The position numbers were made by a program, and so were the translations under genes. Source: a virus. From it: a stretch of DNA of 64,000 nt. This document shows, piece by piece, positions 1,006 through 17,398 of the stretch. Below the pieces are notes generated by a model that searched no databases, was not told the DNA's origin, and saw only the letters and a program-made list of their open reading frames with translations. Numbering within the stretch: the first letter of the stretch is position 1; every line of letters starts with the position of its first letter. The stretch covers positions 71,337 through 135,336 of the IMG/VR virus record IMGVR_UViG_3300008117_000049. The stretch is one strand, 5' to 3'.

Positions 1006-1144
1006 GTCTCCGATTTTGGCTCGTGTGTGGGGTGGCTTACCCTTAGATTTCCGCCCCACACACACCCTAAAAATCTGGGAATAAATCTTGACATTTTTTA
1101 GTTTTATACAGTAAAGTAGTAGTAACAAGAAAAGGAGTTCAGAA

Positions 1145-3040
1145 ATGAGCCACTACAAAGTAAGCACCAAAACCATTGGTCGCACCCACCCTGACTGGTT
1201 GAAAGTCAATGCCAGCGTTGGCAAGATTGTCAACAAATGGTCGCTACGCCAAGACCTAGTTGTAGGTCTAGTTGAGGACACCACCATTGGTGCACCTGCG
1301 TGTTTCAATCCTGCCACAGCAGAGATTGAAGTTTGTATCAGCAAAGCGTTTGGCAATGTTGAGCCAAAAGAAGTTGGCGAACTTACACACCGAAAAAATC
1401 AACTTAAGCACCCAACTGCTACTGGTGCTATTTTCCACGAGGCACTCCACGCTAGGATTTCTCGCTGGTCATTAGAGCAAGCAGCAAAAGATTTAGATGC
1501 AAGACACTTGCGTTTCTTGCATGCTATGGAAGAGGGTCGCATTGAGTATTGGGGTTGCGTATTTGTTCCAGAGAACAGATTGCTACTTCGTGCTTGTGCA
1601 ATGGAAATCGTTATGGCAGAACTTGACGAGCAAGTTAAAAATGTTTCAAAAGTAGACGCTGCTGCCTTTACTGCTCTGCTCACTCTTGCGAGAGTAGACG
1701 CTGGCGTTTTGGATGCAAATGATGTTCCAGAAGTTGTTATGGAAATCCTGCACGAGGTTCTTGGTAAAGAGACCATTGACCAGTTGCGTGAAATCTGGAA
1801 AGAGTTCCAAGCACACAGCGACCACGAAAACGCATTACCACTTTACGAACTTACAAATCGTTTCATTGAAGTTCTTGATGCACGCAAAGATGAAGTTGGC
1901 GAGAAACCAACTGAAACACCAAAAGGTGGTTGCGAGTATCCGGGTGGAGAGAGTGGCACACCAGAACCGGGCACATCAAAGCCGAGCGAGGATGGCACAC
2001 CTACACCAAGCAACGAACCTACTGACGAGCAAGTCAAGCAGTTCAAGAAGTTCATTGAGCAAGTCAAAGACGCAGTTGAAGAAATGAAAGACATTGTTCA
2101 GATTGCCAACCAAGACGACATCAATGACGAGATTGACATGGATGAACGCAAAGAAGAAGTCGAGCAAAGAGACAAAGCACACGAAGAAAAGAAACATCGT
2201 GACAAGATTGCTGACGAAGTTTTCTCTGCTGGTTCTCACATAACTGGAATTAGAACCAACTCTGTTCTTCAAGACTCTCGCTCACCTAAGCCAGAAGAAC
2301 TGGCAGCAGCCAACAAAGTTGCTAACGCTTTGCGTAAAGCAAAGTATCGTGAGCGTTCACAAGTTCGTGCTGGTAGCGTTGTTCCACCAGGTCGCTTGCG
2401 TTCTCGTGCAGTTGTTCAGCGTGAGGCTCTTAAGGCTAAGGGCGTTGTATCTCCGATTGAAACTTGGAGACGCACACAGCGTAAGCAAACAGAAGACCCA
2501 ACATTAAAGGTTGGCGTTATGGTGGACATTTCTGGTTCTATGAAACCAGCAATGCAACCAATGGGCATTACTGCGTGGATTATGTCAGAGGCAGTTCGTA
2601 GGATTCAGGGCAAGTGTGCAATGGTCTATTACGGTCAGAATGTATTTGCCACTCTTAAGCCGGGACAGAAGTTGGACAAAGTGAAGACTTTCACTGCCAC
2701 CGACTCAACCGAAGAGTTTGCCAAAGCGTTCAAGGCTCTTGACAGTGGCTTGGGTCTAACCAGTGGAGACGGTGCGAGATTGCTCGTAGTTGTTTCTGAC
2801 GGTAGATACCGTAGCGACCAGCAAGCATACGCCAAGCAGTTGCTCAAAGAGGCTGACCGTAAGGGCGTGGCTATCTTGTGGCTGACATTTGACGGTAAGA
2901 CTGGCTACGCTAAGTCATACCTAGACGGAACAAGTGGCGAGATTGTATCGCTCAACAGCACCGAGTCGCCAGTCAAAGCAGCGCAGGTAATCGGACAGAC
3001 CGCGGCCAAAGTGGTCTCGGCAATCGGCTCACGAGTCTAA
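1145..3040 (+). CDS. VWA (CobT-like) partner of the AAA+ ATPase, with an N-terminal HExxH motif
   Basis: HEALH, acidic linker, MIDAS DISGS, VVVSDG; RBS aaggag. Confidence 0.88.
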   Translation: MSHYKVSTKTIGRTHPDWLKVNASVGKIVNKWSLRQDLVVGLVEDTTIGAPACFNPATAEIEVCISKAFGNVEPKEVGELTHRKNQLKHPTATGAIFHEALHARISRWSLEQAAKDLDARHLRFLHAMEEGRIEYWGCVFVPENRLLLRACAMEIVMAELDEQVKNVSKVDAAAFTALLTLARVDAGVLDANDVPEVVMEILHEVLGKETIDQLREIWKEFQAHSDHENALPLYELTNRFIEVLDARKDEVGEKPTETPKGGCEYPGGESGTPEPGTSKPSEDGTPTPSNEPTDEQVKQFKKFIEQVKDAVEEMKDIVQIANQDDINDEIDMDERKEEVEQRDKAHEEKKHRDKIADEVFSAGSHITGIRTNSVLQDSRSPKPEELAAANKVANALRKAKYRERSQVRAGSVVPPGRLRSRAVVQREALKAKGVVSPIETWRRTQRKQTEDPTLKVGVMVDISGSMKPAMQPMGITAWIMSEAVRRIQGKCAMVYYGQNVFATLKPGQKLDKVKTFTATDSTEEFAKAFKALDSGLGLTSGDGARLLVVVSDGRYRSDQQAYAKQLLKEADRKGVAILWLTFDGKTGYAKSYLDGTSGEIVSLNSTESPVKAAQVIGQTAAKVVSAIGSRV

Positions 3041-3072
3041 TCGGCTCGTGTAGAAGTAGGGGCTGGCAAGAG

Positions 3073-3121
3073 AACGGCTAGCCCTTACTTCAAACCTTAA
3101 CGGCAAGCCTAACGGCTTGCC
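3073..3121 (+). repeat. Cluster 1 of RACGGCNNGCC direct repeats (3 copies)
   Basis: aacggctagcc 3073, aacggcaagcc 3099, aacggcttgcc 3111. Confidence 0.8.
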
Positions 3122-3148
3122 TTAGATAGAAAGAATAGGAGACTAACG

Positions 3149-3553
3149 GTGGGACAGTATCACAGATTAGTTAACATAGATAAGCAAGAGTGGGTAGACC
3201 CTCACGGATTAGGTCTAGGGTCAAAGCAGTATGAGCAAACGGGTTGCGATGCATCACTAGCAGACGCAATGTATGTGCTTGTAATGACAAGCCCTGATAG
3301 TGGTGGTGGAGATTTCCCCATGACAGACATTTCTGGTCGCTGGGTAGGCGACAGAGTTTTGATTGTGGGAGATTACACAGACAAAGACGCAGTGCCCGGA
3401 TTTGTTGGGGCTGACGCTATTTATCAGTTGGCAGAGGCTCAATACAAAGACATTACCCCTGATGTTCGCAAAGCGTTGAGCAAAGTGTTCAGGATTGAAT
3501 ACAGCACAACGACTATGGGCAATCATACATTTTGGAACAGAGTTCTGGAATAA
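3149..3553 (+). CDS. Hypothetical phage protein
   Basis: RBS aggag, GTG start, 134 aa, followed by a terminator. Confidence 0.8.
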   Translation: MGQYHRLVNIDKQEWVDPHGLGLGSKQYEQTGCDASLADAMYVLVMTSPDSGGGDFPMTDISGRWVGDRVLIVGDYTDKDAVPGFVGADAIYQLAEAQYKDITPDVRKALSKVFRIEYSTTTMGNHTFWNRVLE

Positions 3554-3566
3554 ACCAAACGCAAAG

Positions 3567-3594
3567 AGTCCCCTGATTTTTCAGGGGATTTTTT
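3567..3594 (+). terminator. Intrinsic terminator
   Basis: agtcccctga-tttt-tcaggggatt followed by a T-tract. Confidence 0.8.
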
Positions 3595-3710
3595 GTTGCA
3601 CCTGGGGTAATACTTTTTCCATGCGAGAGGTTTGTTCCATGCTTCGCATGGAAAAACCAATAACCTGCGTTTCCTTATGTTTTTTCTTCGTTTGAAGGTG
3701 TCGTCTTCTT

Positions 3711-3727
3711 GTTCGCTCAGGGCGAAC
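3711..3727. promoter_or_regulatory. ClgR-type palindromic box GTTCGC-N5-GCGAAC; variants at 6346, 7435, 8052
   Basis: Perfect palindrome starting 36 bp before the GGAAG element; variants start 35 bp before theirs. Confidence 0.65.
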
Positions 3728-3813
3728 AGAAAAATACTTGCCAAAGGGAAGAAAATGTCAGCGTAGTGTGTTATCTTTCTTGTATGGGAAATGACAAAAC
3801 GATTGGAGACCAA

Positions 3814-4098
3814 ATGCAATACTCAACTCTTTTTCCAAAGGTAACCCTAGTAAAGCGTTCACAGGGACAGCGTGGGCAGTATGGGGCTAGAAAAGCCTAC
3901 ATGATTTACATAAGGCAGTTAAACCCCACAGGGCGTTGGTGCGTCTTTATGTCTTGGGGCAGAGAAGAAGCACCTAACTCTTGGATGGGCAGTGAAAAGA
4001 TTTTTGCGACAGAGCAGGAGGCAGTTGCTTTTGCTTGGGATAAGTTCTACGAAAAGATTGACAAAGGCTACACAGAAAAAGTCTTGAAAAATAGTTAA
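3814..4098 (+). CDS. WGR-domain protein
   Basis: WCVFMSWGR...EAVAFAWDKFYEKIDKGY; RBS ggag before ATG 3814. Confidence 0.7.
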   Translation: MQYSTLFPKVTLVKRSQGQRGQYGARKAYMIYIRQLNPTGRWCVFMSWGREEAPNSWMGSEKIFATEQEAVAFAWDKFYEKIDKGYTEKVLKNS

Positions 4099-4179
4099 AA
4101 ATAAACTTGACATTTGGGAATAAATCCTGAATAATCATAGTTATAGTTATTATAGAAGTTCTTTTGAAAGGAGAACAAA

Positions 4180-4509
4180 GTGGAAAGACTAGGAATCCAC
4201 ACTGAGTCAGCAAAGGCTCAGTTGCTAACAACCCCAATCAAGTTTGACTTGGCTGGTAAATCAGGAGTCACCATTGACTCTTTCGCTAACGCTGAGGGCG
4301 AGGCTATTTATCGTCTTCAATGGACTGACTATGTAGTAAATGAGTGGAACGAGTTTTACGCAACTCTTTCTCTTGCTCTTGCTCGCGTAGCAGTTCTATC
4401 TGCCTGTATCGAAGAAGACTTAAAGAACGAAGAAACATTGTTCTTTAAGAGCGACTCCGAGACTTTCGCAAACCACGCATACAACTTCATAAGCAACGAG
4501 GTGAAATAA
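4180..4509 (+). CDS. Hypothetical protein
   Basis: RBS gaaaggag, GTG start. Confidence 0.8.
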   Translation: MERLGIHTESAKAQLLTTPIKFDLAGKSGVTIDSFANAEGEAIYRLQWTDYVVNEWNEFYATLSLALARVAVLSACIEEDLKNEETLFFKSDSETFANHAYNFISNEVK

Positions 4510-4814
4510 TGACTGACAACAGAACCCACCCTTGCCCAACTTGTGATGGGCAGATTCCGAACAACGAAACTCCCGGAGCATACCCCGGTGCTATCTCACG
4601 CAAGGATAACAAAACAGAAATCTGTTCTGCGTGTGGAATGAACGAGGCTTTCGCAGATTACAAAAAGCAACTCAGGGAAGTTTCTGGGATTGTTTGGCAG
4701 TCAACTGTTTTGGCAGAAATGGTTGAGCACCTAAACGACAACGAGATTTCATTACTCGTCAACGCTCTCAATGACGCAGTTGCCGAAATCTGCGAGTCCT
4801 ACGACATAAAGTAG
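4509..4814 (+). CDS. Zn-ribbon hypothetical protein
   Basis: CPTC...ISRKDNKTEICSAC; TAATG coupling. Confidence 0.8.
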   Translation: MTDNRTHPCPTCDGQIPNNETPGAYPGAISRKDNKTEICSACGMNEAFADYKKQLREVSGIVWQSTVLAEMVEHLNDNEISLLVNALNDAVAEICESYDIK

Positions 4815-4899
4815 AAACTCTGGGTGTGGGGTTGCCAAGTGTCAGCCCCACACTCTATAATAAAATACATAACAACTCTCTTGAAAGGAGAACTGCCAA

Positions 4900-5310
4900 A
4901 TGGCAAACTACTACGCAACAGAAAGAACCAACTACTTCTTGGTTAACAACGAAGAGGGGTTCTTAGAAGATGTCCAAACTTTTTTGGGCAACCACGAAAT
5001 CCTTAGAAAAGAAAAGGATGGCAAAACTTATTTTGCGATTCTTGGGGATTATGAAAATGGGCAAGGGCTACCTGCTTATTACGAACACGAAGGCGACACA
5101 TTTGAGTTAGAGTGGGCTGACTTTTTCAAAGCACACTTGGCAGAGGGTTCTGTCGCAATCATCATGCACGCTGGTAACGAGAAAATGCGTTATGTAATGG
5201 GCTATGCTCACGCTTACAACTGGAAAGGCGAAGTTAAGACTATTGACCTGCGTGACATTTACGAACTTGCCAAAGAACTTGGCAACGACATTACAGAAGT
5301 GGAGTTTTAA
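4900..5310 (+). CDS. Hypothetical protein
   Basis: RBS gaaaggag; upstream TTGCCA-N18-TATAAT. Confidence 0.8.
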   Translation: MANYYATERTNYFLVNNEEGFLEDVQTFLGNHEILRKEKDGKTYFAILGDYENGQGLPAYYEHEGDTFELEWADFFKAHLAEGSVAIIMHAGNEKMRYVMGYAHAYNWKGEVKTIDLRDIYELAKELGNDITEVEF

Positions 5311-5505
5311 ATGGGTAAGCAAGTTTATTTCGTAGTCTATGCCGACTTAGATACCAAAGAACTAATCGTTGATGATGGAACTTTGGAGGCTCGTTTCAAC
5401 GAGGGTTCTATTTGGAACACCGAAACTAACGAGTGGGAAGACGAGGCTAAAATCAGCGAACTGGCTGAGGCACAAGAAATCCTTAAAAAAGGTTTAGTGG
5501 ACTAA
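5311..5505 (+). CDS. Hypothetical acidic protein
   Basis: Abuts the previous stop; RBS ggag. Confidence 0.7.
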   Translation: MGKQVYFVVYADLDTKELIVDDGTLEARFNEGSIWNTETNEWEDEAKISELAEAQEILKKGLVD

Positions 5506-5612
5506 CCATTGACAAGCGAAAGCCACTTGCCCTATACTTGTAGGGTGAGTGGTAATCGCCATTCACAACAAAGTGTAAAATGATTTATAGAAAAGATTGA
5601 GGTGAAAAAATC

Positions 5613-5879
5613 ATGAAGAAATACATTGTAGTTGCAGAAGTGAACTTTGAAGTTTATGACACTGACGAGTTCTCCGCTGAAAGACAGGGGCTTATTGCCC
5701 TAGCCAGATTTGTTGGCGACCCAGACGCAAGGGGGTATGACAACGAATACGCAGACTTGCCAACTCCGTCTATCCACCCAGTTACAATCAGGGTTGAAGA
5801 CGAGAATGGAAAGTTCTTGGCTGGCTCTACACCAGCAACCTTAAACAAGGTTGAAGACAAAGAAGAAACAGCAGAGTAA
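5613..5879 (+). CDS. Hypothetical protein
   Basis: RBS gaggtg; upstream TTGACA-N18-TATACT at 5509. Confidence 0.7.
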   Translation: MKKYIVVAEVNFEVYDTDEFSAERQGLIALARFVGDPDARGYDNEYADLPTPSIHPVTIRVEDENGKFLAGSTPATLNKVEDKEETAE

Positions 5880-5909
5880 TCTGCCTCAAACAGAAAGACA
5901 AAGAGACAA

Positions 5910-6188
5910 ATGAACCTAGCAATAGCACTCGGAAATACCATTAGAAAAATGCGAGTCGATAGGGAGATAACCCTAAGACAACTCAGCGCAAGGTCGCATA
6001 CTTCGCTTGGGTATCTGTCTGAGATTGAACGAGGAACGAAAGAAGTTTCTTCAACAGTCTTGCAGAGTATCGCAGATGGTTTAGATGTTCCGCTTTACTT
6101 AATACTTTCAGAATGCTCAGTATCACTAATGTGTGCAGACGAAAGAGAAAAAGAAAACCGGGGCATGGAAAATCTAGTAGCCTTCTAA
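5910..6188 (+). CDS. clgR: ClgR-like XRE helix-turn-helix transcriptional regulator
   Basis: LGNTIRKMR..TLRQLSARSHTSLGYLSEIERGTKEVSS..L.SIADGLDVPL resembles the actinobacterial ClgR signature (SLGYLSEVERGxKExSS). Confidence 0.75.
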   Translation: MNLAIALGNTIRKMRVDREITLRQLSARSHTSLGYLSEIERGTKEVSSTVLQSIADGLDVPLYLILSECSVSLMCADEREKENRGMENLVAF

Positions 6189-6208
6189 AAAACATAAGGA
6201 GAGACGAA

Positions 6209-6346
6209 ATGAACACATTGCTGAGGCTATCTGCCGAATCCACAGTGGACATCTACCTACTTGCTGAAAGTGAGGAGTTGATTGCTCTAATCAAACAGAA
6301 CAAGCCATACACCGAACTTTTGGAGTGGGTTAACGAGAACTTCTAG
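6209..6346 (+). CDS. Small hypothetical protein (45 aa)
   Basis: RBS aaggag before ATG 6209. Confidence 0.65.
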   Translation: MNTLLRLSAESTVDIYLLAESEELIALIKQNKPYTELLEWVNENF

Positions 6347-6463
6347 TTCTCTTAGAGCGAACAAAAAACTTTGGCGTTTTGGAATAAAATGTCAGTGTTG
6401 TAGGTTATAGTAAATGTATCAAGCAGAAATGCTTGGTGGCTAAACGAAGGAGATAGATACCAA

Positions 6464-6787
6464 ATGAAAAAGCCACTAACAAACATAATCAAGGGCAAGA
6501 CCGTAGAAGTTGGTTTTGACCACAATGTCCGAGTTGCATTGGACAAGTTCAGCGAGGCTCTGGAGGCTAAGAAGTTAGCCGACAAAGCCAAAGAAGAGGC
6601 TGAGGAAGTCTTAAGACTTGCTCTCGGTGACGCAGAGTTCGCTACCATTAGCGGACAAAAGGCGTTCAAAATGATGCAGGTAATTATGGACAGACCAGAC
6701 CTTAAGAAACTTCAAGCGGAGTTTCCAGAGGTCTACACCGCAGTCGCAGTTGACGGCTCTTACGAGTTCATCAGAGCGATAAACTAA
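6464..6787 (+). CDS. Hypothetical protein
   Basis: RBS aaggag; own promoter at 6381; hairpin downstream. Confidence 0.75.
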   Translation: MKKPLTNIIKGKTVEVGFDHNVRVALDKFSEALEAKKLADKAKEEAEEVLRLALGDAEFATISGQKAFKMMQVIMDRPDLKKLQAEFPEVYTAVAVDGSYEFIRAIN

Positions 6788-6952
6788 AAACTTGGTGGGC
6801 AGTGTTTCACTTCCTTTCAAATCACTGGCACTGCCCACCAAACAAACTCCGTTAGGTTTCACTTCCATTTTCCTAACGGCACGGCAAGCAAGAACCTGCC
6901 CTTTCTGTTTGCCAGCCCCTAACCGTATGACGCGGTTAGGGGTTTTACTTTT

Positions 6953-7088
6953 AACGGCTTGCCTAGAACGGCTAGCCCCTAACGGCTTGCCCTTTGTAGA
7001 AATGACGGCAAGCCTTTTACGCAAGCGTAGAACGCTTGACGGGAGACTTGACGGGTGCTTATAGCACAAGCGTAGAACGCTTGACGGG
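6953..7088 (+). repeat. Cluster 2 of RACGGCNNGCC repeats plus two 22-bp direct repeats
   Basis: Copies at 6953, 6967, 6981, 7004; caagcgtagaacgcttgacggg at 7022 and 7067. Confidence 0.8.
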
Positions 7089-7197
7089 TCGCTTTTATGT
7101 AATAGACGCACACAAACCCTAACGGGTCGTGTTTTTGCACCTGCAGAAGCAGAGTGGCTGAGGGAGAAGAAATAACATAAGCAACGCACAAGAGGAA

Positions 7198-7230
7198 GAA
7201 GCAGAAGCAGAAGCAGAAGCAGAAGCAGAA
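7198..7230 (+). repeat. (GAAGCA)5 microsatellite
   Basis: Five tandem hexamers, intergenic. Confidence 0.9.
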
Positions 7231-7518
7231 GAAACAATGCACATTGCGAAATAAAGCATAAGAAAGCATGAGGCAAAAATCTGGGATACCAGATTTTCCA
7301 TGCAACCCAGAAGTCCATGCTTCGCATGGAAAAATAAGGGACCCGGATTTTTACCTTTGAGATTTGGATGCAGAGGCGAAGATGAGATTTTTTTGTTCTT
7401 ATGTTTTTAATTTGAGTTTGGAGAAGATTTTTTTGTTCGCTCTGGGCAAACAAAAAGTTTTCCTGTTTGGGAAGATTTTGTCTGGGGTTGGAGTTATTGT
7501 ATGTATAGGAGGTGGAAC

Positions 7519-7671
7519 ATGAACCATAAAGTAGAGATACACATTGGCAATGTCAATGTGGGTAATCACTTCTTCGCTACGCTAGATGAGGCTAACGCCT
7601 TTGTTGAACTATTCAACTCATCTAAGCACAGCCTAGATAACTCGCTGGCTATGTATGTGAACGCTTACTAA
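7519..7671 (+). CDS. Small hypothetical protein (50 aa)
   Basis: RBS aggagg, promoter at 7470; below the ORF-track cutoff. Confidence 0.7.
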   Translation: MNHKVEIHIGNVNVGNHFFATLDEANAFVELFNSSKHSLDNSLAMYVNAY

Positions 7672-7683
7672 ATAGCCACCTGC

Positions 7684-7710
7684 GACCTGAGCAAGTCCTA
7701 AAACTGCTCT
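7684..7710 (+). ncRNA. Putative H-type pseudoknot element, copy 1
   Basis: gac-ctgagcaa-gtc-ctaaaac-tgctc; covarying copies at 8519 and 16528. Confidence 0.6.
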
Positions 7711-7738
7711 AAACCTATTCTTTGTAAGGAGGCGCTCA

Positions 7739-7870
7739 ATGGTAAAGTTTTACTTTATTTTTGATGGCTATGGTTATCCACTCTGCGATACTCACTCTGG
7801 GGGATTGCAACTTGGGGTGGAAACTGACCTAAGTTGTCATGCTTGCGACAAACTCGCTCAGGCTGAGTAG
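7739..7870 (+). CDS. Small Cys/His protein (43 aa)
   Basis: RBS aaggagg; CDTH...CHAC; terminator 7882-7915. Confidence 0.65.
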   Translation: MVKFYFIFDGYGYPLCDTHSGGLQLGVETDLSCHACDKLAQAE

Positions 7871-8137
7871 TCGCCACTAAAAGTCGCTCACTAGAAATAG
7901 TGGGCGATTTTTTTTGCATCCGAACTTGGCTGGGCCGGGGATTCCATAGTGCATGGAAAAACAGGGGACCGGGAAACTTGATGCGTCTTGCCTCAACTTC
8001 TATTTATTTGTTGTCTTATGTTTTTTCTCCAGGGCCTGGAGGCTTCTTAGCGTTCACTGAGGGAGAACAAAAAAAGTTGGCACATGGGAATAAAAAAGTA
8101 ATGTATTGGGTTATTATTTGTATGGAGGTGAAAAACT

Positions 8138-8512
8138 ATGGATAACTTAGAGACAAAAGTCACGCTTAACAGCGACTGCACTTGCGTTGATGAAGATGAC
8201 AACTTCATTGAAGAGTGTTTTGGTTGTTGGGATGATTCCAAGTATGACTTGGACTTACTTGTTAAAGAGGTTCAGGCTGATAAAGGCTGGACAGATGAGA
8301 CAGAGGTTCAGGTTGAATACAGGGGAGTATCTTGGCGTAGAGTATCTGGCGATTTTGTTATGGCGTTCAACGCTGATGACTTAATCAAGAGGTTCTCGCT
8401 CAATGGCGACTTCAAGTTGGTATTTACTTATGCCAATGGCGAGTTGGTATTGGTTCGCTATTCTCATGATGAGCCTGTTGGGACAGGCAACATCACTTTC
8501 AAGGCTATCTAG
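8138..8512 (+). CDS. Hypothetical protein
   Basis: RBS ggaggtg; promoter at 8087. Confidence 0.8.
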   Translation: MDNLETKVTLNSDCTCVDEDDNFIEECFGCWDDSKYDLDLLVKEVQADKGWTDETEVQVEYRGVSWRRVSGDFVMAFNADDLIKRFSLNGDFKLVFTYANGELVLVRYSHDEPVGTGNITFKAI

Positions 8513-8518
8513 TCTTGG

Positions 8519-8546
8519 CAACCTGAGCAAGTTGTAAAAAGGCTCA
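8519..8546 (+). ncRNA. Putative H-type pseudoknot element, copy 2
   Basis: caac-ctgagcaa-gttg-taaaaag-gctca. Confidence 0.6.
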
Positions 8547-8575
8547 ACACTACAAAAGTCTTAAGGAGGCTGATT

Positions 8576-8830: not shown

Positions 8831-9123
8831 TCTCAAAACAAAAGTCCCGCGTTGGAAGACGCGGGATTTTTTGTGCCGTTTTTTGTGGGGTAGGGATTTT
8901 TCCATGCCATCCATGAGCATGGAAAAACACGCCACCCGGCTCCGACCTGAGATGGAGAAGAGTTCTTGTCAGTGTGCTGGTGTATCTCGGAAAAAACATA
9001 AGAACACCGAAAACCTGTGCGATAGGCAAAGATAACGATTTGGTAACGAAAGAAAAAAGTTTGCTGTTCGGGAATAAAAAGTCAGTGCGACCTGTTATAG
9101 TTAGTATGAAAGGAGGTAGTCAA

Positions 9124-9786: not shown

Positions 9787-10058
9787 AACGGCTGGCTTGC
9801 TGAACACCGTTAGCAGTTCTAACGGCTCGCCTTTGACGGCAAGCCTGTATAAAAGCCAACGGCTAGCCTTTGACGGCTCGCCCTATAAGCCAACGGCTAG
9901 CAACTAACGGCTAGCCTTTAAAACACTAACGGCAAGCCTTTTTGACGGCTTGCCTTTTACAAACTAACGGCAAGCCTTATAAGAGATAAAAAGCCAACGG
10001 TGAGCCTTTTTACGAGTGGTATGTAGGTAGGCGTGAAAAAAGCCAACGGTAAGCCTTT
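9787..10058 (+). repeat. Cluster 3: about 12 iteron-like RACGG(C/T)NNGCC repeats
   Basis: 9787, 9821, 9835, 9858, 9872, 9892, 9906, 9928, 9944, 9966, 9996, 10045. Confidence 0.9.
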
Positions 10059-10242
10059 TTAATGATTAATTACAAATAAAAATACAGAGGCATTGCGTCT
10101 GGAAAAGTGGAGAAGAAAAACGCAAGAGGGAGAAAAAACATAAAAATACGAAGACATGGGAGAAAAAATGCGAAAAGAGGCGAAAGGAAAAAAAGGCAAC
10201 CCAGGCTGGCCTGGGGGACTTTATTACATAAGCATCTGGTTT

Positions 10243-10410
10243 GGAAGACTTGCATTTCTGGAAGATTTATGTAGTTCTGGAAGATTTGTAAAGATTTGTA
10301 AAGATTTGGAAGATTTGGAAGATTTGGATTTGGTGGGAAGTGGGCTGGAAGTGGCTTTGGGTCGCCTGTTTGGGCTGGAAGTTCGCTTCTGGTGGGCTGG
10401 ACTTGGGTTC
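10243..10410 (+). repeat. Degenerate tandem repeats ((G/A)AAGATTTG and TGGGCTGGA)
   Basis: ggaagattt/aaagatttg repeated about 7 times, followed by tgggctgga repeats. Confidence 0.75.
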
Positions 10411-11030
10411 ATGGGAGAAAGTTGGTTGGAAGGTCGCTTTCCGGGGGGGCCTGGGTAGGTGGTATTTCCATGCAGAATGTTATTAAAACCTCGCTCCTCT
10501 GGCTGAAATGAAGCCTCATCAACAATGGAAGTTCTGTTTGGGAGAAGTTTATTCGCTCAGTGGGAGAAAGTTTGTAAGTATAAGAAGATGATTTACACAT
10601 GTCAAGCGATTTGCAAAATTAATTTCGCATGTCTGCATGGAAAAACTGCCTGGGCGAACAAATAAAAACATAAGATTCATCAGTGTAAAGGTCGGATGGA
10701 GAAAAAAATGAAGAGAAGATTTCTTGTCAGCAAAAAATAACATAAAAATAAAACATGTATAAAACATGTTTGAGAAAAAGTCCAGAAGATTTCTTGTCAG
10801 TAAAAAAAATACGAGTGCGTGCAGTTCCAGGTTCCTGGAATTTCCATGCTTCTTATGTTTTAAATTTCTGCCTCTCGTCTGCTTCCTCTCATCAAATAGA
10901 TTTGATTTCTCATTTGGATTTGGGCTGGGCTGTGCGTGCAGACATTTATAACAGGTTGGTAACAAACATAACACTTGGGAAGTTATTGGCAAGTTATCTG
11001 GTTTTAATTAAGTAGAAAGGTGGTGAAAAT

Positions 11031-11144
11031 ATGGACACTAATGTTTGCGAAACCCCTTGGTGTGACCACGAATTAAGTGGCGATAACATCAAAAGTTGGG
11101 CTGGCAAGAATGGTTATTGTGATTCTTGCTGGTTGCTGGGCTAA
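11031..11144 (+). CDS. Small Cys-rich protein (37 aa)
   Basis: Promoter 10978, RBS aaggtggtg, CETPWC...CDSC, terminator 11161-11190. Confidence 0.65.
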   Translation: MDTNVCETPWCDHELSGDNIKSWAGKNGYCDSCWLLG

Positions 11145-11415
11145 ATAGTTCAGTTTAGATTTCCCCGAATCAGTTGGTTCGGGGATTTCTATTTAATCTG
11201 CTTCTGCAACTCGGATGCAACTCGGATGGAGGGTGCGAAAGTTTCCTGCCGTGTGCATGGAAACCCAGGGGACCTGGAATTTCTTCTGCATCACGGGAAT
11301 CTTTGCGTCAAGAAGTTTGTTGCGTTTGGAGATTATTATAATGATTTGATAACGACAGGAATAAATACGGGGGATTATCCGTTTATGTTAGTGAGATAGA
11401 AAGGAAGTGATTACT

Positions 11416-11589
11416 ATGCCGATACTAAACAGCAAGGGCGAAGCCTTTATTGAGTGCGGGGGTTGCGGAAACCTATTTGACCCAAGCACCGAAGTAAAGA
11501 TTTACGAAACCCACGACTGCGAAACCTACAATGTTTGTAGTGATGAATGCGGTTGTGGCGACCCCGGGTGCGACACAATAGCAAAGTAA
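11416..11589 (+). CDS. Small Cys-rich protein
   Basis: Promoter 11358; CGGC..HDC..CSDECGC; terminator 11606-11636. Confidence 0.7.
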   Translation: MPILNSKGEAFIECGGCGNLFDPSTEVKIYETHDCETYNVCSDECGCGDPGCDTIAK

Positions 11590-11891
11590 TAACTGAATAC
11601 CGCAAGTGCCAACTCCATTCGGGGTTGGCATTTGTGTTTAACGCCGAAACCCAGAGAACGCAGGTGGATGCTGAATTATTTTGAGCCGGGGTTCCTAGAA
11701 TTTCCATGCCCGGTTTTTCGTTTGGATACGCCGTCATTCGCTGTGATGAGTGGTGGGGCTTCCTCATCTATAACATAAGAGAACGCCGACTTGTGTGATA
11801 ACGATTTATAACGATTTGATAACAACGCCGATGCTTGGGAAGTTTTTGTCGGGGGCGGGGGTTATTATAACTATGAAAGGTGGTGATTACT

Positions 11892-12161
11892 ATGGAACTA
11901 AATGACGCGGGGCAACAAGTTGTTGGTGGTATTCCACAAACTAAACTTACGCCGAGTGACCTTGTTAAGTATTGGGGTGCGATTATTGGTGCGAACACCG
12001 ATGGCGACCTAGCAACTTGGCAACACGACACAACTATCGTCAACATCTTTACCTCAAACCAAGATGGAACTTACGACTTCTCAACTTACATAGAAGAAGA
12101 CTTAGAGGGCCGGGATTTGGATTTTGTGATGGAGATGGTCGACCAGCAGTTGTTTATCTAA
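11892..12161 (+). CDS. Hypothetical protein
   Basis: Promoter 11838; RBS aaggtggtg. Confidence 0.75.
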   Translation: MELNDAGQQVVGGIPQTKLTPSDLVKYWGAIIGANTDGDLATWQHDTTIVNIFTSNQDGTYDFSTYIEEDLEGRDLDFVMEMVDQQLFI

Positions 12162-12238
12162 ACCAATGCCGAACCCTCTGGGAATAATTTGTCAGGGGGT
12201 TCGGTTATTATTCTTTTACACCGAGAGGAGGTGGGACT

Positions 12239-12472
12239 ATGGAACTAACAGCAGTAGAAGAGCAAGCAGTAAAGGCTATCTACACCGATTATCACAATGG
12301 GACAACTAACGCCGATGAAGCGTTGCACGCTTTGGAGCAACTAATCAATGGTGGACTATTGCCTTGCGATAAGTGCGGGGAGAAGATAGAAGCAGATACA
12401 CACGCCGAAGAACTTGGTATGTGCGTTGAATGCTCAAACGCTTTCTTTACTCACAAAGACGAGGCAAACTAA
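12239..12472 (+). CDS. Small Zn-finger protein
   Basis: Promoter 12181; RBS gaggagg; CDKC...CVEC. Confidence 0.75.
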   Translation: MELTAVEEQAVKAIYTDYHNGTTNADEALHALEQLINGGLLPCDKCGEKIEADTHAEELGMCVECSNAFFTHKDEAN

Positions 12473-12596
12473 CACCGAATCTTCCAAACACGACCCTCAA
12501 CTCAGGTTGGGGGTTTTGTTTTGCTGGGCTCGGCTGGGTGGGCTGCCGAATTTTCCATTCCCTAAACGCCGTGTTATTTTATTTTTAGAAAAAGTA

Positions 12597-12625
12597 TTGA
12601 CATCCGCTGGGGCAATGTTTATAAT
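12597..12625 (+). promoter_or_regulatory. Consensus housekeeping-sigma promoter TTGACA-N17-TATAAT
   Basis: Exact consensus; similar promoters at 4832, 5509, 15057, 15637, 19705. Confidence 0.8.
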
Positions 12626-12649
12626 AAAGTTATGCGAAAGGAGGAACTC

Positions 12650-12862
12650 ATGCATGAATACGAAAAAACTTTACAAAAGTTATGTGCCGAACTTGTTGTT
12701 GAGCAAGGAAAGAACGCGGTTTTTGACTTCGTGAAGCAAAATCATAGAGAACTGAGTTGGTATTTCTGTCTGGAATGCAAAAGTGAGTGTCCTGCGACAT
12801 CAAATCAAGTTTGTTTGGTGTGCGGTGCAAACATTTTTGATGAAGACGACCCAACCATCTAA
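12650..12862 (+). CDS. Small Zn-finger protein
   Basis: RBS aaggagg; CLEC...CLVC. Confidence 0.75.
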   Translation: MHEYEKTLQKLCAELVVEQGKNAVFDFVKQNHRELSWYFCLECKSECPATSNQVCLVCGANIFDEDDPTI

Positions 12863-13006
12863 AAAGTATCCCGTATTGGAGAAAAAAGCCGATGCGGGAT
12901 AGTTTTTTGTTCGCCATGGGCATGGAAAATGCGGCGACCCTGACTTGACTTTTGTTTTATTATCTGGGACAATGTAATCAACAACCAATACCGAAAGGAG
13001 ATGAAA

Positions 13007-13138
13007 ATGGAATACGAGTTTCTATTTACGATGTGGGAGTGCACCGCTTGTGCTCACCTTTACAATAACGAGCAAGAAAAATGCACGAACTGCCACAACG
13101 AGTGCAAACCTATAAAAATTAAAGGCGTAAGAGCCTAA
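13007..13138 (+). CDS. Small rubredoxin-like Zn-ribbon protein (43 aa)
   Basis: RBS gaaaggag; WECTAC...CTNC. Confidence 0.65.
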   Translation: MEYEFLFTMWECTACAHLYNNEQEKCTNCHNECKPIKIKGVRA

Positions 13139-13248
13139 ACCCCCGTTATCAAATTGTTATGAACTGCCGATAGAAATACTTGACTAATTTGTGCCGTAGG
13201 GTATAGATTTGCTGTATGGCAACAAAATCTCTCGGAAAGGAGAACGCA

Positions 13249-13428
13249 ATGAAAATTGTTATTGCTTTGCTAGGTATGTGGTGTTTTTGGAATTGTCTTC
13301 GCATCACCGACCAACTCGGACACGCCTTTATCTTTGGTGGAAACTTACCTGCTCTATGGGCTGGGCTTTTGCTTTTCTTCTCTGGGTTTGTGGGCTGTGT
13401 AGTGTATCTGTTTGGAAACAGGGAATAA
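13249..13428 (+). CDS. Small membrane protein
   Basis: RBS gaaaggag; two hydrophobic segments. Confidence 0.65.
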   Translation: MKIVIALLGMWCFWNCLRITDQLGHAFIFGGNLPALWAGLLLFFSGFVGCVVYLFGNRE

Positions 13429-13479
13429 AATGTCTGCCGTTTTAGTTATAGTAATTATCAAGAAAGGAATTGATAACTA

Positions 13480-13695
13480 ATGGAAAAAACAAAAATAAGA
13501 GTAGAACTGATTTCTACTTCCGACCCTTATACAAATCTAACTAAGGGTGCATTAGGAACTAAGGTGATGGAATACATTGACCCTTGGGGATACCGAACAA
13601 TTGTAGTGCAATGGGACAATGGCTCTAACCTAAGTCTTATCGAAGGTTCGGGAGATAGTTGGAGAGAGATTACGGAAGTGGTGGATAATGTATAA
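13480..13695 (+). CDS. DUF4314-like protein
   Basis: RVELISTSDPY..L..G..GT...D..G...VQWDNGSNLSLI. Confidence 0.75.
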   Translation: MEKTKIRVELISTSDPYTNLTKGALGTKVMEYIDPWGYRTIVVQWDNGSNLSLIEGSGDSWREITEVVDNV

Positions 13696-13891
13696 CTATT
13701 CATCAGCAACTTATACAGTCACTCTGACCACAAACTCTACGAGTTACATTACGAGTGTTACAACACCGACAACTGACCAAGAAGAAATTATTGACTTGGC
13801 GATAGAACGCATAAAAGAAGAAGATGGTTTTGACTTATCTAATCACAAGTTAGTTGATACCGATGTAGAAGTATTGGAAGTGTGGGACTAA
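13688..13891 (+). CDS. Hypothetical protein
   Basis: Overlapping start/stop coupling. Confidence 0.65.
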   Translation: MYNYSSATYTVTLTTNSTSYITSVTTPTTDQEEIIDLAIERIKEEDGFDLSNHKLVDTDVEVLEVWD

Positions 13892-14169
13892 TGAGTGCTA
13901 CCGATTACAACGACCTAAGCCGACACATAGGACACGATGTAGTAGTTGTGACCTATGCCGATACTAATGTCGCCATTGAGTGCGAAGAGTGTAGTGAAGT
14001 GCTACTGGACTTTGACAAAGAAGTTGAGTGCGAGAACCACACTTGGACTTTACAAATGAACATAGCCAACACCCCGACACAGAACTGGTGCGAAGAGTGT
14101 GGAGCAACTGAACCTGCCGACCCTGAAGATGTGGCAGAACAAATCCGACTATTAGGAGAGAACGACTAA
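13891..14169 (+). CDS. Zn-binding hypothetical protein
   Basis: HIGHDVVVVTY...AIECEEC; TAATG coupling. Confidence 0.7.
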   Translation: MSATDYNDLSRHIGHDVVVVTYADTNVAIECEECSEVLLDFDKEVECENHTWTLQMNIANTPTQNWCEECGATEPADPEDVAEQIRLLGEND

Positions 14170-14292
14170 TGAACGATAAAGAAAAAGAACTAATCAACAA
14201 TAAAGAAAAAGCGTTGATAAATGTTAGAACCATTCAGATTTGTTTGCGTATGGGTTTGACTATGGAACAAATTAAGAAAGTGCTGGATAAAA

Positions 14293-14685
14293 ATGAATCA
14301 GGAAACTAAAATCAACACCGAAAGATTATCCCCTGAGTTTTATGTCTGGGAAACTGGATACGAAGAAGTCTGGGCTGATAAAGATAATCCATTTTTCGTA
14401 GTGCGAAATGGCGAAATGCGTATCCACAAAACCGAAAAAGATGGAAGTGTAAAGATAATCAGATACACCGATGCTTTGCTAAAAGAAATCAGCAACGATG
14501 GGGAACTTAGCAAATTGTATGAACAAGATGAAGAACTGCTAACAATAGTTATGAACCCTTGGTTTGAGATTTACTCTATCCATCACACCGACTACTACTC
14601 TGAGCCGTTTTCTGAACTGGACAAGGCGATAGATTACGCAAGAGAAATGCTGGTGAAGTATCCCGATGGGATAGTTACCGACTAA
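14293..14685 (+). CDS. Hypothetical protein
   Basis: 130-aa ORF in the operon. Confidence 0.75.
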   Translation: MNQETKINTERLSPEFYVWETGYEEVWADKDNPFFVVRNGEMRIHKTEKDGSVKIIRYTDALLKEISNDGELSKLYEQDEELLTIVMNPWFEIYSIHHTDYYSEPFSELDKAIDYAREMLVKYPDGIVTD

Positions 14686-14786
14686 AAGAGAGAAAGAGAA
14701 ACTGGCTTGGGAAACCGAGCCTTTTTCTTTATGCCGAAGATGGCGTGGGCAGCCTGTTTTTCCGTTCACAATGCTACCTTTGTAGC

Positions 14787-15059
14787 ATGTCCTTTCACTC
14801 TGCTACACCGATAAAACTGCTTGACGCGTTTGATGAACGCATCTCTTTTCTTTACTTCCTTTCAGGTGGGGTGCATGATGGGAGAATAGTTCTGATTTCC
14901 TCGTTGGCGAGGCAGGATTATGAAGAAACAAGTGTCTTTCTCTGTAATGATTTGGAGGGAGATGATGTGGACTGGGGTAATTCGTTATCAACTATCCCGT
15001 ATGTGGATACCGAAGATGCACTCAACAGGATAGGATACACAACGAAGATTTCCTCTTGA
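14787..15059 (+). CDS. Hypothetical protein, possibly leaderless
   Basis: TACCTT-N6-ATG; no RBS. Confidence 0.55.
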   Translation: MSFHSATPIKLLDAFDERISFLYFLSGGVHDGRIVLISSLARQDYEETSVFLCNDLEGDDVDWGNSLSTIPYVDTEDALNRIGYTTKISS

Positions 15060-15119
15060 CATGGAAAAACCTGCCGCCTACAATAAAACACAAGACGATA
15101 ATGACAAAAGGAGATGCCG

Positions 15120-15617
15120 ATGGGCACGACTGTTGATGGATTGAAGCCGACTCACGCCGTAGGAGAGTCGTTCAGTAGAAATGTGTGGGGCTGGACTCCA
15201 CTGAAGAACTATGTTCTTGAAAATCACAACAAATACGAGAAAGCCTTTCTTGATGGCAAACTCACTAAACTCCAAGCAAGCAGACTGGCCGATGCTCTGT
15301 TTGAAGACATCGCAAGTGGCAAGGCCGAGAAATATGCCGATAACTTTATGCTCACTGTAAAAGCAGAGCCAACTGTCGTATGTGAAATCTGTGCTGGCAC
15401 TGGTATTCGTGCCGATGAACTTGGAAAAGAAAAGGGTATGGACAAGATGGAGTTAGTGGCTCTGCTTGCCGAACAAGTTGGTAGGACACACGGATATTGC
15501 AATGGCTGTGGTGGGTTTGGCTCAAGGAAGACCAACAACAGTAGTTATTACTTAGAAGTAGAAGATATCCAAGAGTTCGCCGAGTTTCTCAAAAACTCAG
15601 GTGGAGCAAACTGGTAA
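15120..15617 (+). CDS. Protein with DnaJ-type CxxCxGxG Zn motifs, paralog A
   Basis: RNVWGW.PL, CEICAGTG, CNGCGGFG. Confidence 0.75.
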   Translation: MGTTVDGLKPTHAVGESFSRNVWGWTPLKNYVLENHNKYEKAFLDGKLTKLQASRLADALFEDIASGKAEKYADNFMLTVKAEPTVVCEICAGTGIRADELGKEKGMDKMELVALLAEQVGRTHGYCNGCGGFGSRKTNNSSYYLEVEDIQEFAEFLKNSGGANW

Positions 15618-15710
15618 AAAATCTTTTGCGACACGCTTGACAAATGTCAGTGCCGTTGTGTAGATTTCATATATACCAAATGGTAACAACAAACGATTGG
15701 AGAAAATACT

Positions 15711-16226
15711 ATGGGTATGGATGTATATGGCAAGAGCCCTAAGAACGAAACTGGCGAGTACTTCCGCCGTAATGTTTGGGGCTGGCGACCACTCTGGGAC
15801 TACTGCGTTGATAACTTCAACGACCTAGTTGGCGAAGTATCTGGACATTACAACGATGGCGATGGATTGAACAACGCTGGCAGTTTGGAACTAGCACGCC
15901 GAATTAGAGAACAACTAAAAACTGGTGAGGCTAAGGATTACATTGAAAAGCGTAATTCTCGTTTAGCATCACTTGAACGACCTAACTGCGAACTCTGCCA
16001 AGGAACTGGTATTCGTACCGATGCACTTGGCGTAGAGCACAAGATGCCGATTAGAGAACTTTCACCTGAGATGGCATCACTAACTAATCGCACACATGGT
16101 TGGTGTAATGGTTGCGATGGCGAAGGTAAGAAAGATGCGTGGGAAACTTCCTACTCACTTGACCTTGATGATTTAGAAGAGTTTGCCGAGTTCCTAGAGA
16201 ACTCTGGTGGATTTGAGATTTGCTAA
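15711..16226 (+). CDS. Protein with DnaJ-type CxxCxGxG Zn motifs, paralog B
   Basis: RNVWGWRPL, CELCQGTG, CNGCDGEG, EFAEFL.NSGG. Confidence 0.8.
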   Translation: MGMDVYGKSPKNETGEYFRRNVWGWRPLWDYCVDNFNDLVGEVSGHYNDGDGLNNAGSLELARRIREQLKTGEAKDYIEKRNSRLASLERPNCELCQGTGIRTDALGVEHKMPIRELSPEMASLTNRTHGWCNGCDGEGKKDAWETSYSLDLDDLEEFAEFLENSGGFEIC

Positions 16227-16264
16227 TGAAAGAGCAAACACAACTCACGAAAGGAGGGGTAAAA

Positions 16265-16507
16265 GTGAGAGCAAATATGACAAAAAAGAACGCCGATGCT
16301 AGTTGGGATTGGTTTGTTGCTATGTACACAAAGCGTGGCTACAAATCTCTAAACCAATTTGCGATGGCTACTGGAATGCAGAAAAGCAGTCTAAGTAGAT
16401 ACTTCCATCAGCAACGACAGTTGCCGTCAGGTATGATGGCAAAACTCTGCCAAGAACTCAAAGTCACGCCAAACGAGATGATGAAAGCACTTGGTATGTG
16501 GCAGTAA
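16265..16507 (+). CDS. XRE-type helix-turn-helix protein
   Basis: SLNQFAMATGMQKSSLSRY...KLCQELKV; RBS aaggagg; start uncertain. Confidence 0.7.
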   Translation: MRANMTKKNADASWDWFVAMYTKRGYKSLNQFAMATGMQKSSLSRYFHQQRQLPSGMMAKLCQELKVTPNEMMKALGMWQ

Positions 16508-16527
16508 ACCCCGCTATTTAGTAGCAA

Positions 16528-16556
16528 ACACCTGAGCCAAGTGTCTAAACTGGCTC
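16528..16556 (+). ncRNA. Putative H-type pseudoknot element, copy 3
   Basis: acac-ctgagccaa-gtgt-ctaaac-tggctc. Confidence 0.6.
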
Positions 16557-16675
16557 TTTTTACACATAAACACCGATTTATGTGGGTAAAATATTACCTA
16601 TAACTGAATATGTATTGGGAGAACCAAAACAAACAACGACCAAGTACTAACTAACAAGGAAAGGTAGGTCGCCTA

Positions 16676-17257
16676 ATGAAATGGTTGCTGACAATAACAA
16701 TGGCTTTGTTGCTCAATGGGTGTGTATCATCTTCGGCAATAGCAAGTCAGTTAGCAAAAGATGAAGTGACAAGGAGTGTGGAAACTCAACAAATTGTCGC
16801 ATCAAAGAACATTTTCAATAACCCCGTAATATCTAAATCCACTTCGTTTGCGAAGTATGCGGAAAGTATTGAAAATAGAAAAAAACTGAATAAAGTCGTA
16901 ATCCGATTAATACACCGAGTAGGTAAAACCCCCTATGTTCCGACTGGTTCATCTATTTATGGGTGGGACTGCTCTGGGATGGTCAGATGGGCTTACGAGC
17001 AACTGGGTGTAGAAGTACCACACTCAGCAACAGCACAAGCGTATGTTGGTGAAAGAGTATCTAAGAAAGAACGAAAAGTTGGAGATATAGTAATCTTTGG
17101 CTATCGTGGCTCTAAGAGTTTCTACCACTCCGCTATTTACATTGGTAAGGACAAGGTAGTAAATGCCAATCGTGGATTTGGTGGAACTCACATACAGCCA
17201 CTCTCCGATTACGAAAACAACAGAATAATCTATGTTCGGGTAATACCGACTGCGTAA
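16676..17257 (+). CDS. Secreted NlpC/P60 cell-wall endopeptidase
   Basis: N-terminal signal/lipobox-like segment; GKTPY..GWDCSG; HSAIYIG. Confidence 0.9.
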   Translation: MKWLLTITMALLLNGCVSSSAIASQLAKDEVTRSVETQQIVASKNIFNNPVISKSTSFAKYAESIENRKKLNKVVIRLIHRVGKTPYVPTGSSIYGWDCSGMVRWAYEQLGVEVPHSATAQAYVGERVSKKERKVGDIVIFGYRGSKSFYHSAIYIGKDKVVNANRGFGGTHIQPLSDYENNRIIYVRVIPTA

Positions 17258-17398
17258 AGATAAACTTCAGGAACTCCCCGTCAGAAATGGCGGGGATTTC
17301 TCCTTCCTGGGCCGCCATTTTTTCTGTGCGTTTCCACTTGACAATGGGAATAAATTCCTATAAGTTTTAGTTATTGAATACATACCGAAAGGATTCAA

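Follow-up and report, generated by a model that had tools for sequence, protein, structure and literature searches.

Which sigma factor reads a motif that stands, copy after copy, in front of the small genes of a phage? The question is raised by a window of 64,000 nucleotides, the whole stretch of DNA analysed here, which comprises bases 71337-135336 and thus the final 64 kb of IMG/VR virus record IMGVR_UViG_3300008117_000049. The record is a complete virus genome of 135,336 bp with terminal repeats and 42% G+C. A sequence-only reading of the window had noticed 13 copies of GGAA(T/G)-N18-GTT, called them exact promoters for the actinobacterial stress sigma factor SigR/SigH, and proposed that the phage has wired a bank of genes to that host factor, or to an extracytoplasmic function (ECF) sigma factor of its own encoded outside the window, in parallel with housekeeping promoters. 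The sites appear to be a promoter class of their own, and the chance that a SigH-type (ECF12) sigma factor reads them is judged to be about even. Coordinates below are those of the window unless marked as genome or G000 (this phage).

The repeated motif is confirmed as real. All 13 copies of GGAAK-N18-GTT were found on the plus strand where they had been placed. The window holds 23 matches in total, against 4.57 +/- 2.22 in 100 dinucleotide shuffles (largest 10), none of which reaches 23, and the plus strand of an 18-kb block (genome 70501-88800) holds 15 against 0.92 +/- 0.99 in 1000 shuffles (largest 5). Matches beyond the earlier 13 lie at 11296, at genome 70589 (747 bases before the window start) and on the minus strand at 25148-25173, the last two having the same extended look as the listed sites. 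The remaining ~117 kb contains scattered matches without that look, and the first 70.5 kb a single match, on the minus strand. From the end of each of the 13 sites it is 23-57 nt to an ATG or GTG preceded by a Shine-Dalgarno-like (SD) run, as expected from the statement that each lies before a ribosome-binding site and an open reading frame (ORF). Most also overlap a TAnnnT hexamer, which follows GT directly in register at 9 of the 13, or at 10 of 15 when the aligned list of 15 is taken. The word exact holds for the core with its N18 gap and not for the spacer, which is variable except for a TGTCAG-like box. At least 107 IMG/VR stretches match GGGAATAAA-N15-GTTATNNT; among the matches listed, nearly all are single and at chance level, and only the relative G001 has 3.

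The motif agrees with a known promoter type. The consensus for SigH of Corynebacterium glutamicum, as given in excerpts of PMC10012870, has gGGAAta at -35 and GTT at -10, N18-19 apart; according to the same excerpts G is tolerated at -31, as in the rshA promoter GGAAGA-N17-GTT of that species, plain GTT is found at exclusively SigH-dependent promoters, and t/c precedes GTT. The phage sites, termed class 2 here, were pooled at N18 into a set of 34, to which this phage contributes 14, G001 13 and a second relative, L002, 7. GGAA is invariant in the set and is followed by T at 28 sites and by G at 6, as in the SigH -35 element. Bases outside the search pattern agree as well, with G before GGAA at 27/34 and A after GGAAK at 32/34. 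Against the C. glutamicum consensus the upstream box matches at 7 of 7 positions. The spacing to GTT is likewise that of SigH promoters, at N18 for all 34 sites across three phages and at N17 for one ortholog. When the numbering in the excerpts of PMC10012870 is applied, a conserved T falls at -1 (32/34) and a purine at +1 (32/34), where a SigH start would be expected, some 9-10 nt past GTT. The identification of the motif with the SigR/SigH consensus is therefore upheld, flanking bases that had not been searched for included.

The full class-2 element reads tG-GGAATAAA-a-TGTCAG-N8-GTTATAGT, then T-R-T-R, and forms a second promoter class beside the TTGACA-N17/18-TAnnnT promoters of the same region (class 1). 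Canonical SigA promoters lie beside class-2 sites and are interleaved with them at four, so that the parallel arrangement with housekeeping promoters was described correctly. Class 1 comprises only the best-scoring intergenic sigma70-like matches; taken together, canonical matches show no enrichment across window 1-20000 (33 vs 27.1 +/- 6.4). Several class-1 promoters read TTGACA-aa-TGTCAG-N10-TAnnnT. Both classes thus have the TGTCAG box at an equal distance to the hexamer and differ in the -35 box; the position of the SigA TTGACA-like -35 is held in class-2 sites by (G)AATAA(A) instead. In many class-2 copies a remnant of the form TTGnCA precedes GGAAT by 3-4 nt, and an 11-12-bp piece bearing GGAATAAA would appear to have been inserted between TTGACA and TGTCAG.

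It is the upstream box, and not the hexamer, to which GTT is tied. The GGAATAAA octamers have GTT at exactly N18 in 9 of 10 cases within the block and in 0 of 7 elsewhere in the genome. GT covaries with the GGAAT box, because none of 12 canonical TTGACA promoters from this phage and G001 has G-14 T-13; every class-2 site has T at -13, which all 12 of class 1 lack. The TAnnnT hexamer of class 2 is in register at 20 of the 34 sites, shifted by 1-3 nt at 4 and absent at 10, with GGAAT-N18-GTT fixed throughout. Furthermore, in three orthologous groups GTT is kept inside the otherwise variable spacers of complete SigA promoters about 10 nt away, namely the dual site at 1078 with L002:9932 and G001:8355, the site at 4117 with L002:13026 (N18) and G001:11390 (N17), and the site at 17347 with G001:24884.

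The phage encodes terminase, portal and capsid proteins, a PrimPol-D5 helicase, a class II ribonucleotide reductase and MetK, together with two WhiB proteins (whiB). Its capsid protein matches actinobacteriophages only, best at 63% identity to Actinomycetia phage DSL-LC01 (OQ999401), the closest named relative, which is itself a lake metagenome assembly; the sequencing runs listed for the phage sequence are labelled lake water, and at the nucleotide level the window matched no named phage. By its gene content and source the phage is a freshwater actinophage, with low-GC lake actinobacteria as the likely kind of host. The assumption of an actinobacterial host thus appears right in spite of the low G+C, because the capsid relatives are all actinobacteriophages and two WhiB genes are present.

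In bacteria of this kind, SigH is widespread. Of 401 genomes sampled from the class, 381 match the SigH_actino model, a tally that takes in seven genomes flagged unpublished, and 373 do so above its cut-off, genomes of 1.2-1.5 Mb included. The sigma70 family (sigma70_r2) counts no more than 3-5 genes in five genomes of 1.2-1.4 Mb, and in two single-contig genomes of 1.3-1.4 Mb SigH looks like the sole small ECF-type sigma factor. In three genomes of 1.2-1.5 Mb sigH is directly preceded by gGGGAATAAAGG-N-GTT. In the genome G274 (1.33 Mb, 45-49% G+C), GGAAG-N18-GTT stands where rshA has it in C. glutamicum, and GGGAAT-N18-GTT occurs 12 times, whereas the control has 3. Of these 12 sites, 8 are followed by an ORF of 50 aa or more that has an SD run; after a doubtful 55-aa ORF was dropped, 7 were scanned and found to encode Cpn10 (groES), HSP70 (dnaK), a TrxB-like reductase, DUF4193, DUF7455, Zincin_2 and DAP epimerase, the last of which may follow a chance site. 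Because the G274 sites precede heat and thiol genes, a SigH-type specificity exists, and serves such genes, in the kind of bacterium that the phage probably infects.

The other source considered, an ECF sigma factor of the phage itself, drops out as far as searches by sequence and fold reach. Searches of the complete 135,336-bp record in six frames with Sigma70_r2 (PF04542), Sigma70_r4_2 (PF08281) and the ECF model TIGR02937 gave no match at E<=10, a limit within which highly diverged factors could still escape the models; a search of the phage genome for the ZAS anti-sigma zinc finger (zf-HC2) was also negative. One protein, 21568-22200 (210 aa), was tried as a sigma factor and rejected, as it combines a sigma-4-like N-terminal helix-turn-helix (HTH) with a ParB/KorB-like C-terminal HTH and has no sigma-2 domain. 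PF04545 matches only one of its two HTHs (24.6 bits), and a profile search of the PDB returned sigma region 4 only (E 1.6e-4). Its AlphaFold model (pLDDT 87.6) drew no Foldseek hit at E<=0.001, the best of the weak ones being sigma chains with TM ~0.15, and aligned best by VIA-align with ParB/Spo0J/KorB HTHs (Z 5.8-6.3). The protein has 1063 homologues, lies just upstream of the terminase and is conserved in relatives without the class-2 motif. Most probably it binds DNA and belongs to the packaging region, and it may be the small terminase or a late regulator. It is a core protein of the family, named 'transcriptional regulator' in some sources.

Class-2 sites were followed into the relatives of the phage. 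Where the CobT-like protein is 63-65% identical to that of this phage, in G001 and L002/L003, they are kept with diverged spacers, 13 in G001 (and 1 at N17) and 7 in L002/L003. Two sites of matching architecture are present in G002 and a single one in G005. The latter, GGAATAAA-N15-GTTATA, lies upstream of a phosphatase ortholog (46% identity, E 7e-51) that has a class-2 site in this phage too; the other promoters of G005 are canonical, of the form TTGCTT/TTGACT-t-TGTCGG-N-TGgTAnnAT. Because class-2 sites persist in G002 and G005, a host factor fits better than a phage factor restricted to one clade. No excess above chance was found in DSL-LC01 or G005. As an observation on its own, G005 (L174 + L161) has 32 copies of TGTATTCGTTTTTTCC in the 30 kb that precede TerL, every copy with a terminator-like hairpin on one side and a canonical promoter on the other, and DSL-LC01 (L001) has ~35 copies of the palindromic promoter gATTCTAAAGaTGTTATAATaGAATC before small genes at 22.6-44 kb. 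In the available text of the DSL-LC01 description, the word 'promoter' occurs 0 times (PMC10611076).

On these grounds the host's own SigH is the most likely reader, since GGAAT-N18-GTT is the specificity of the ECF12 sigma factors SigH/SigR. The 15 elements would be promoters of a second class, recognised via the GGAAT -35 and the GTT -10 across a fixed 18-nt gap. They would drive an accessory block of a MoxR-like ATPase with a vWA/CobT-like protein, a WGR-domain protein, a DUF6011 protein, a phosphatase and many unknown proteins. Early expression of the block is plausible from its content of small, mostly acidic proteins, a Cro-like HTH protein, the phosphatase and an HDAC-like enzyme. We infer SigH as the reader, its activity during infection and the timing of expression; the claim of a bank wired to the host stress sigma factor accordingly stands in its premises, namely an actinophage, a match to the SigH consensus, a class apart from SigA promoters, no sigma factor found in the phage, and the presence of both SigH and promoters of its type in small low-GC genomes, and is a prediction as to SigH reading the sites.

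The ATAGT that follows GTT gives many copies a SigA-type TAnnnT as well, and many sites are therefore probably dual. In the preferred form of the mechanism, SigA would provide basal use and SigH a boost once thiol stress, heat stress or the infection as such has freed it from the anti-sigma factor RshA, by which it is normally bound. A more elaborate proposal, which is tentative and in our estimate has the balance against it, is that a lytic-type phage, in a streamlined host whose sole small ECF-type sigma factor may be SigH, turned a whole bank of accessory promoters from SigA to SigH by insertion of GGAATAAA into an ancestral TTGACA-TGTCAG promoter, so that ~15 host-takeover operons are gated by thiol, heat or light stress of the host, or that the phage frees SigH from RshA, perhaps by means of a clade-specific early protein such as the Cys4 zinc-ribbon protein 4509-4814.

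Several findings weigh against reading by SigH. The base before GTT is A at 13, G at 11, T at 9 and C at 1 of the 34 sites, which departs from the pyrimidine of the consensus, a weak position; it is a purine at 24/34 phage sites and a pyrimidine at 9/12 of the G274 sites. The bases after GTT (A26 26/34, T27 31/34, T30 26/34) are firmer than published SigH promoters require, and GTT with its ATAGT tail is equal to a SigA -10 with G at -14; in-register TAnnnT, conserved past what is published for SigH promoters, makes it possible that SigA, too, uses these sites. The class is abundant in one clade only, with no excess above control in G003 and G004. Promoters of DSL-LC01 read TGTTATAAT without GGAAT, and those of G005 have a TTGCTT/TTGACT -35 with the same TGTC spacer box; as relatives without GGAAT have the same -10 half, that half of class 2 may have been inherited from SigA promoters. 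Since RshA sequesters SigH, dependence on SigH requires a release step. As to the host, the best matches of the phage MetK among species genomes reach only ~63% identity (Actinomyces, Corynebacterium), the DNA of the phage's transfer-messenger RNA (tmRNA) gave no match in the 401 actinobacterial genomes, and no RNA run is among the runs listed for the phage sequence.

The strongest alternative, which we consider rather doubtful, is that the sites are SigA promoters used through an extended -10 (G-14, TAnnnT) with no -35 contact, GGAATAAA being bound by a transcription factor, of phage or host, that replaces or blocks sigma region 4, in the manner of MotA/AsiA of T4 or of a repressor at its operator. 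The in-register hexamer at 20/34 and T27 at 31/34 favour it, and so does the TGTCAG box, equidistant from the hexamer in both classes as though the -35 box alone had been swapped. Relatives pair the same -10 with other upstream boxes, ATTCTAAAGaTGTTATAAT in DSL-LC01 and TTGCTT-t-TGTCGG-N-TGgTAnnAT in G005. The two WhiB proteins and the Cro-like HTH protein are on the same side, the WhiB family being known to bind region 4 of sigma A. In mycobacteria the D29 protein gp53 displaces SigA, according to the available part of bioRxiv 10.64898/2026.10.05.756390. The G of an extended -10 is expected to track the hexamer and not an upstream box, and the fixed distance of GTT to GGAAT speaks against this explanation: GTT stays N18 from GGAAT where the hexamer shifts by 1-3 nt or lacks A-11/T-7 (14/34), and also inside separate SigA spacers. 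It would further have to accommodate an invariant T-13 that is absent in 12/12 class-1 promoters and an upstream box identical to the SigH -35 at 7/7 positions, and Pfam and PHROG scans of ~40 small proteins gave no candidate for a GGAATAAA-binder.

Less probable still, and in our view unlikely, is a sigma-like protein of the phage that has diverged beyond the Pfam and NCBIfam models, its specificity being merely SigH-like. The class is abundant only in the clade of G000/G001/L002, where the small acidic or zinc-ribbon proteins 3149-3553, 4509-4814 and 4900-5310 are clade-restricted within the regions compared, and profile searches can miss phage sigma-like proteins, of which T4 gp55 is an example. 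Against it stand the lack of any match to the region 2, region 4_2 and ECF models at E<=10 and the nature of the sole region 4-like match (21568-22200), which has no sigma-2 domain and is present in relatives without the motif. Lone class-2 sites persist in G002 and G005, and an unrelated protein would leave the exact identity with a host-type consensus unexplained. That the repeats are not promoters at all, and instead are recombination or shuffling cassettes or protein-binding iterons between genes, is very improbable: they are part of longer intergenic cassettes with a hairpin GTTCGC...GCGAAC, CTTATGTTTTTT and TTTTCCATGC...GCATGGAAAA, but their orientation follows the genes strictly, an SD run and start codon lie 23-57 nt away at 13/13 sites, conservation is bipartite across a variable spacer and identical to a known promoter consensus, and a cassette role is compatible with promoter function.

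The individual class-2 sites, which are predicted promoters on the plus strand except where noted, can be placed as follows. The first, at 1078..1103, precedes the CobT/vWA-like gene 1145-3040 and is interleaved with TTGACA-N18-TAAAGT at 1088-1117. The GGAAG variant at 3747..3772 ends 41 nt before ATG 3814 of the WGR-domain protein, and 4117..4142, before GTG 4180, overlaps TTGACA-N17-AATAAT at 4107-4135. The consensus-like GGAATAAAATGTCAG...GGTTATAGT is found at 6381..6406 before ATG 6464, followed by 7470..7495 (GGAAG, before ATG 7519), 8087..8112 (before ATG 8138) and 9071..9096 (before ATG 9124 of the DUF6011 protein). The site at 10978..11003, with GGAAG and GTTTTAAT, has no in-register TAnnnT and precedes ATG 11031; at 11358..11383, before ATG 11416, the TAnnnT is shifted by one base. 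Between them, the match at 11296..11321 shares the core only (GGAATCTTT...GTTGCG) without AAA, an A/T-rich -10, TAnnnT or an adjacent start codon, and is probably due to chance. Further sites lie at 11838..11863 (GGAAG, before ATG 11892), at 12181..12206 (before ATG 12239), where the identical 26-mer is found in G001, and at 13422..13447 before ATG 13480, the first in a run of small genes that extends to ~14685. The last on this strand, 17347..17372 (GTTATTGA, no T at -7), is interleaved with TTGACA-N15-TATAAG and precedes ATG 17399. The minus-strand site, 25148..25173, is followed by a canonical TTGACA promoter and lies upstream of the dual-specificity phosphatase gene 24493-25038 (-).

Among class-1 promoters, the one at 12597..12625 (+), TTGACA-N17-TATAAT, agrees with the canonical form at 12/12 positions; others lie at 4107-4135, 4832-4861, 5509-5538, 15056-15084, 15637-15666 and 19704-19733. 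The promoter at 5509 stands before the gene of a Cro/C1-type HTH protein, 5910..6188 (+; HTH_3, E 2e-10). In the canonical promoters 15637-15666, 19704-19733 and 4832-4861 and in their G001 counterparts, a palindrome TGACA-aa-TGTCA overlaps the -35 hexamer; class-2 promoters and the relative G005 retain the TGTCAG half of it. The palindrome is probably an operator, perhaps for the Cro-like protein 5910-6188, which we regard as a candidate binder of both the palindrome and the TGTCAG box.

The intergenic regions are composite cassettes of about 200 nt. Inverted repeats TTTTCCATGC...GCATGGAAAAA recur upstream of promoters at 3616-3656, 7295-7334, 8899-8927, 10636 and 12921 and at genome 70418-70456, and are accompanied by a CTTATGTTTTTT word and by a hairpin, GTTCGCtcagGGCGAAC, which is conserved and lies between runs of T and A. 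Words resembling AACGGCAAGCC, together with AACGGCTAGCC and GACGGCTTGCC, are clustered at 9836-9990, 3100 and 6881-7005 and at genome 68794-69846, with up to six such words within 160 nt in the gene-free stretch at ~9.7-10.1 kb. They are iteron-like putative binding sites, possibly of an origin or a partition site.

Outside the promoter block the genome has other features. The tmRNA is encoded at G000 48972-49313 (L008 8972-9313; Rfam 133 bits; aragorn tag AESRSAFALVA) and adjoins a manA RNA motif (RF01745, 64.9 bits) at G000 49492-49669 (L008 9492-9669). Two minus-strand proteins, G000 38387-39811 and 40068-42002, have an Mtd_N (major tropism determinant N-terminal) domain and may bind receptors as diversity-generating proteins. 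Three giant ORFs separate the portal gene from the capsid gene, 29467-39204 (3245 aa), 39832-52158 (4108 aa) and 52887-58160 (1757 aa), which could be polyvalent proteins delivered with the virion. The first has a DRAT-like ADP-ribosyltransferase domain at residues 1278-1382 (E 6e-12), and it may be speculated that the injected enzyme acts on host transcription; the second has a weak ParB-like nuclease match. Also present are an NlpC/P60 hydrolase (16676-17257), a prepilin-peptidase-like A24 protein (18845-19327), an HDAC-like deacetylase (20145-21113, E 2e-46) and a ferritin/Dps-like protein (28994-29467) that adjoins the portal gene. Several structural-region genes have TAtAAT 5-7 nt before ATG without an SD run, upstream of G000 19049, 64301 and 9456, which suggests leaderless mRNAs of a kind common in Actinobacteria.

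Known phage strategies employ the host housekeeping sigma factor, an own sigma factor or RNA polymerase, or the remodelling of sigma70, and full-text literature searches, with main texts as their scope, turned up no phage promoters described as targets of a host sigma factor of SigH/SigR type. If SigH does read the class-2 sites, a phage regulon under a host ECF stress sigma factor would be on record for the first time, phage expression would follow the redox and heat conditions inside bacteria that rank among the most abundant in fresh water, and a promoter class would be seen to be convertible by a short insertion. A test system would be at hand in reporters in laboratory Corynebacterium or M. 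smegmatis, because SigH specificity is conserved. If it is SigA with a factor that reads them, the sites would still constitute a new box that replaces the -35 in actinophage transcription.

Among known systems, the closest in sequence are the SigH promoters of C. glutamicum, which have the same gGGAAta -35, GTT -10, 18-nt spacing and tolerance of G at -31 (excerpts of PMC10012870), and those of the small actinobacterial genomes, in which the same motif lies before sigH, rshA, groES, dnaK and a trxB-like gene. The phage differs from both in the ~15 copies that drive accessory genes, in the AAA after GGAAT, the TGTCAG box and the ATAGT tail, and in the purine before GTT. The middle promoters of T4, which combine a MotA box at -30 with a sigma70 -10, are used with AsiA and often stand beside or overlap early promoters. 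As in class 2, a housekeeping-type -10 is kept and another box takes the place of the -35 hexamer, but no MotA/AsiA homologue or box-binding protein was found here, and the box is a host ECF sigma -35 with which GTT covaries. The PeSL (promoter-early stem-loop) cassettes of T4-type phages, units of promoter and stem-loop between small accessory genes of a plastic region, resemble the repeated units between small genes described here and differ in host phylum and promoter type. Two of the more distant relatives of the phage, DSL-LC01 and G005, carry small genes in a syntenic block that is bounded by the ATPase/CobT-like pair and the terminase, with a repeated promoter of their own for each gene. 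G005 has the TGTC spacer box in common with this phage and DSL-LC01 has GTTATAAT, whereas the ~35 copies of gATTCTAAAGaTGTTATAATaGAATC in DSL-LC01 are without GGAAT and G005 uses a canonical TTGCTT/TTGACT -35. In Thermus phage P23-45, promoters with an extended -10 and no -35 are used while gp39 blocks sigma region 4. Its middle and late promoters thus provide the model for -35-independent transcription with the housekeeping sigma factor as reader (available text of PMC5758890), from which the sites of this phage are set apart by a conserved upstream box at a specific spacing.

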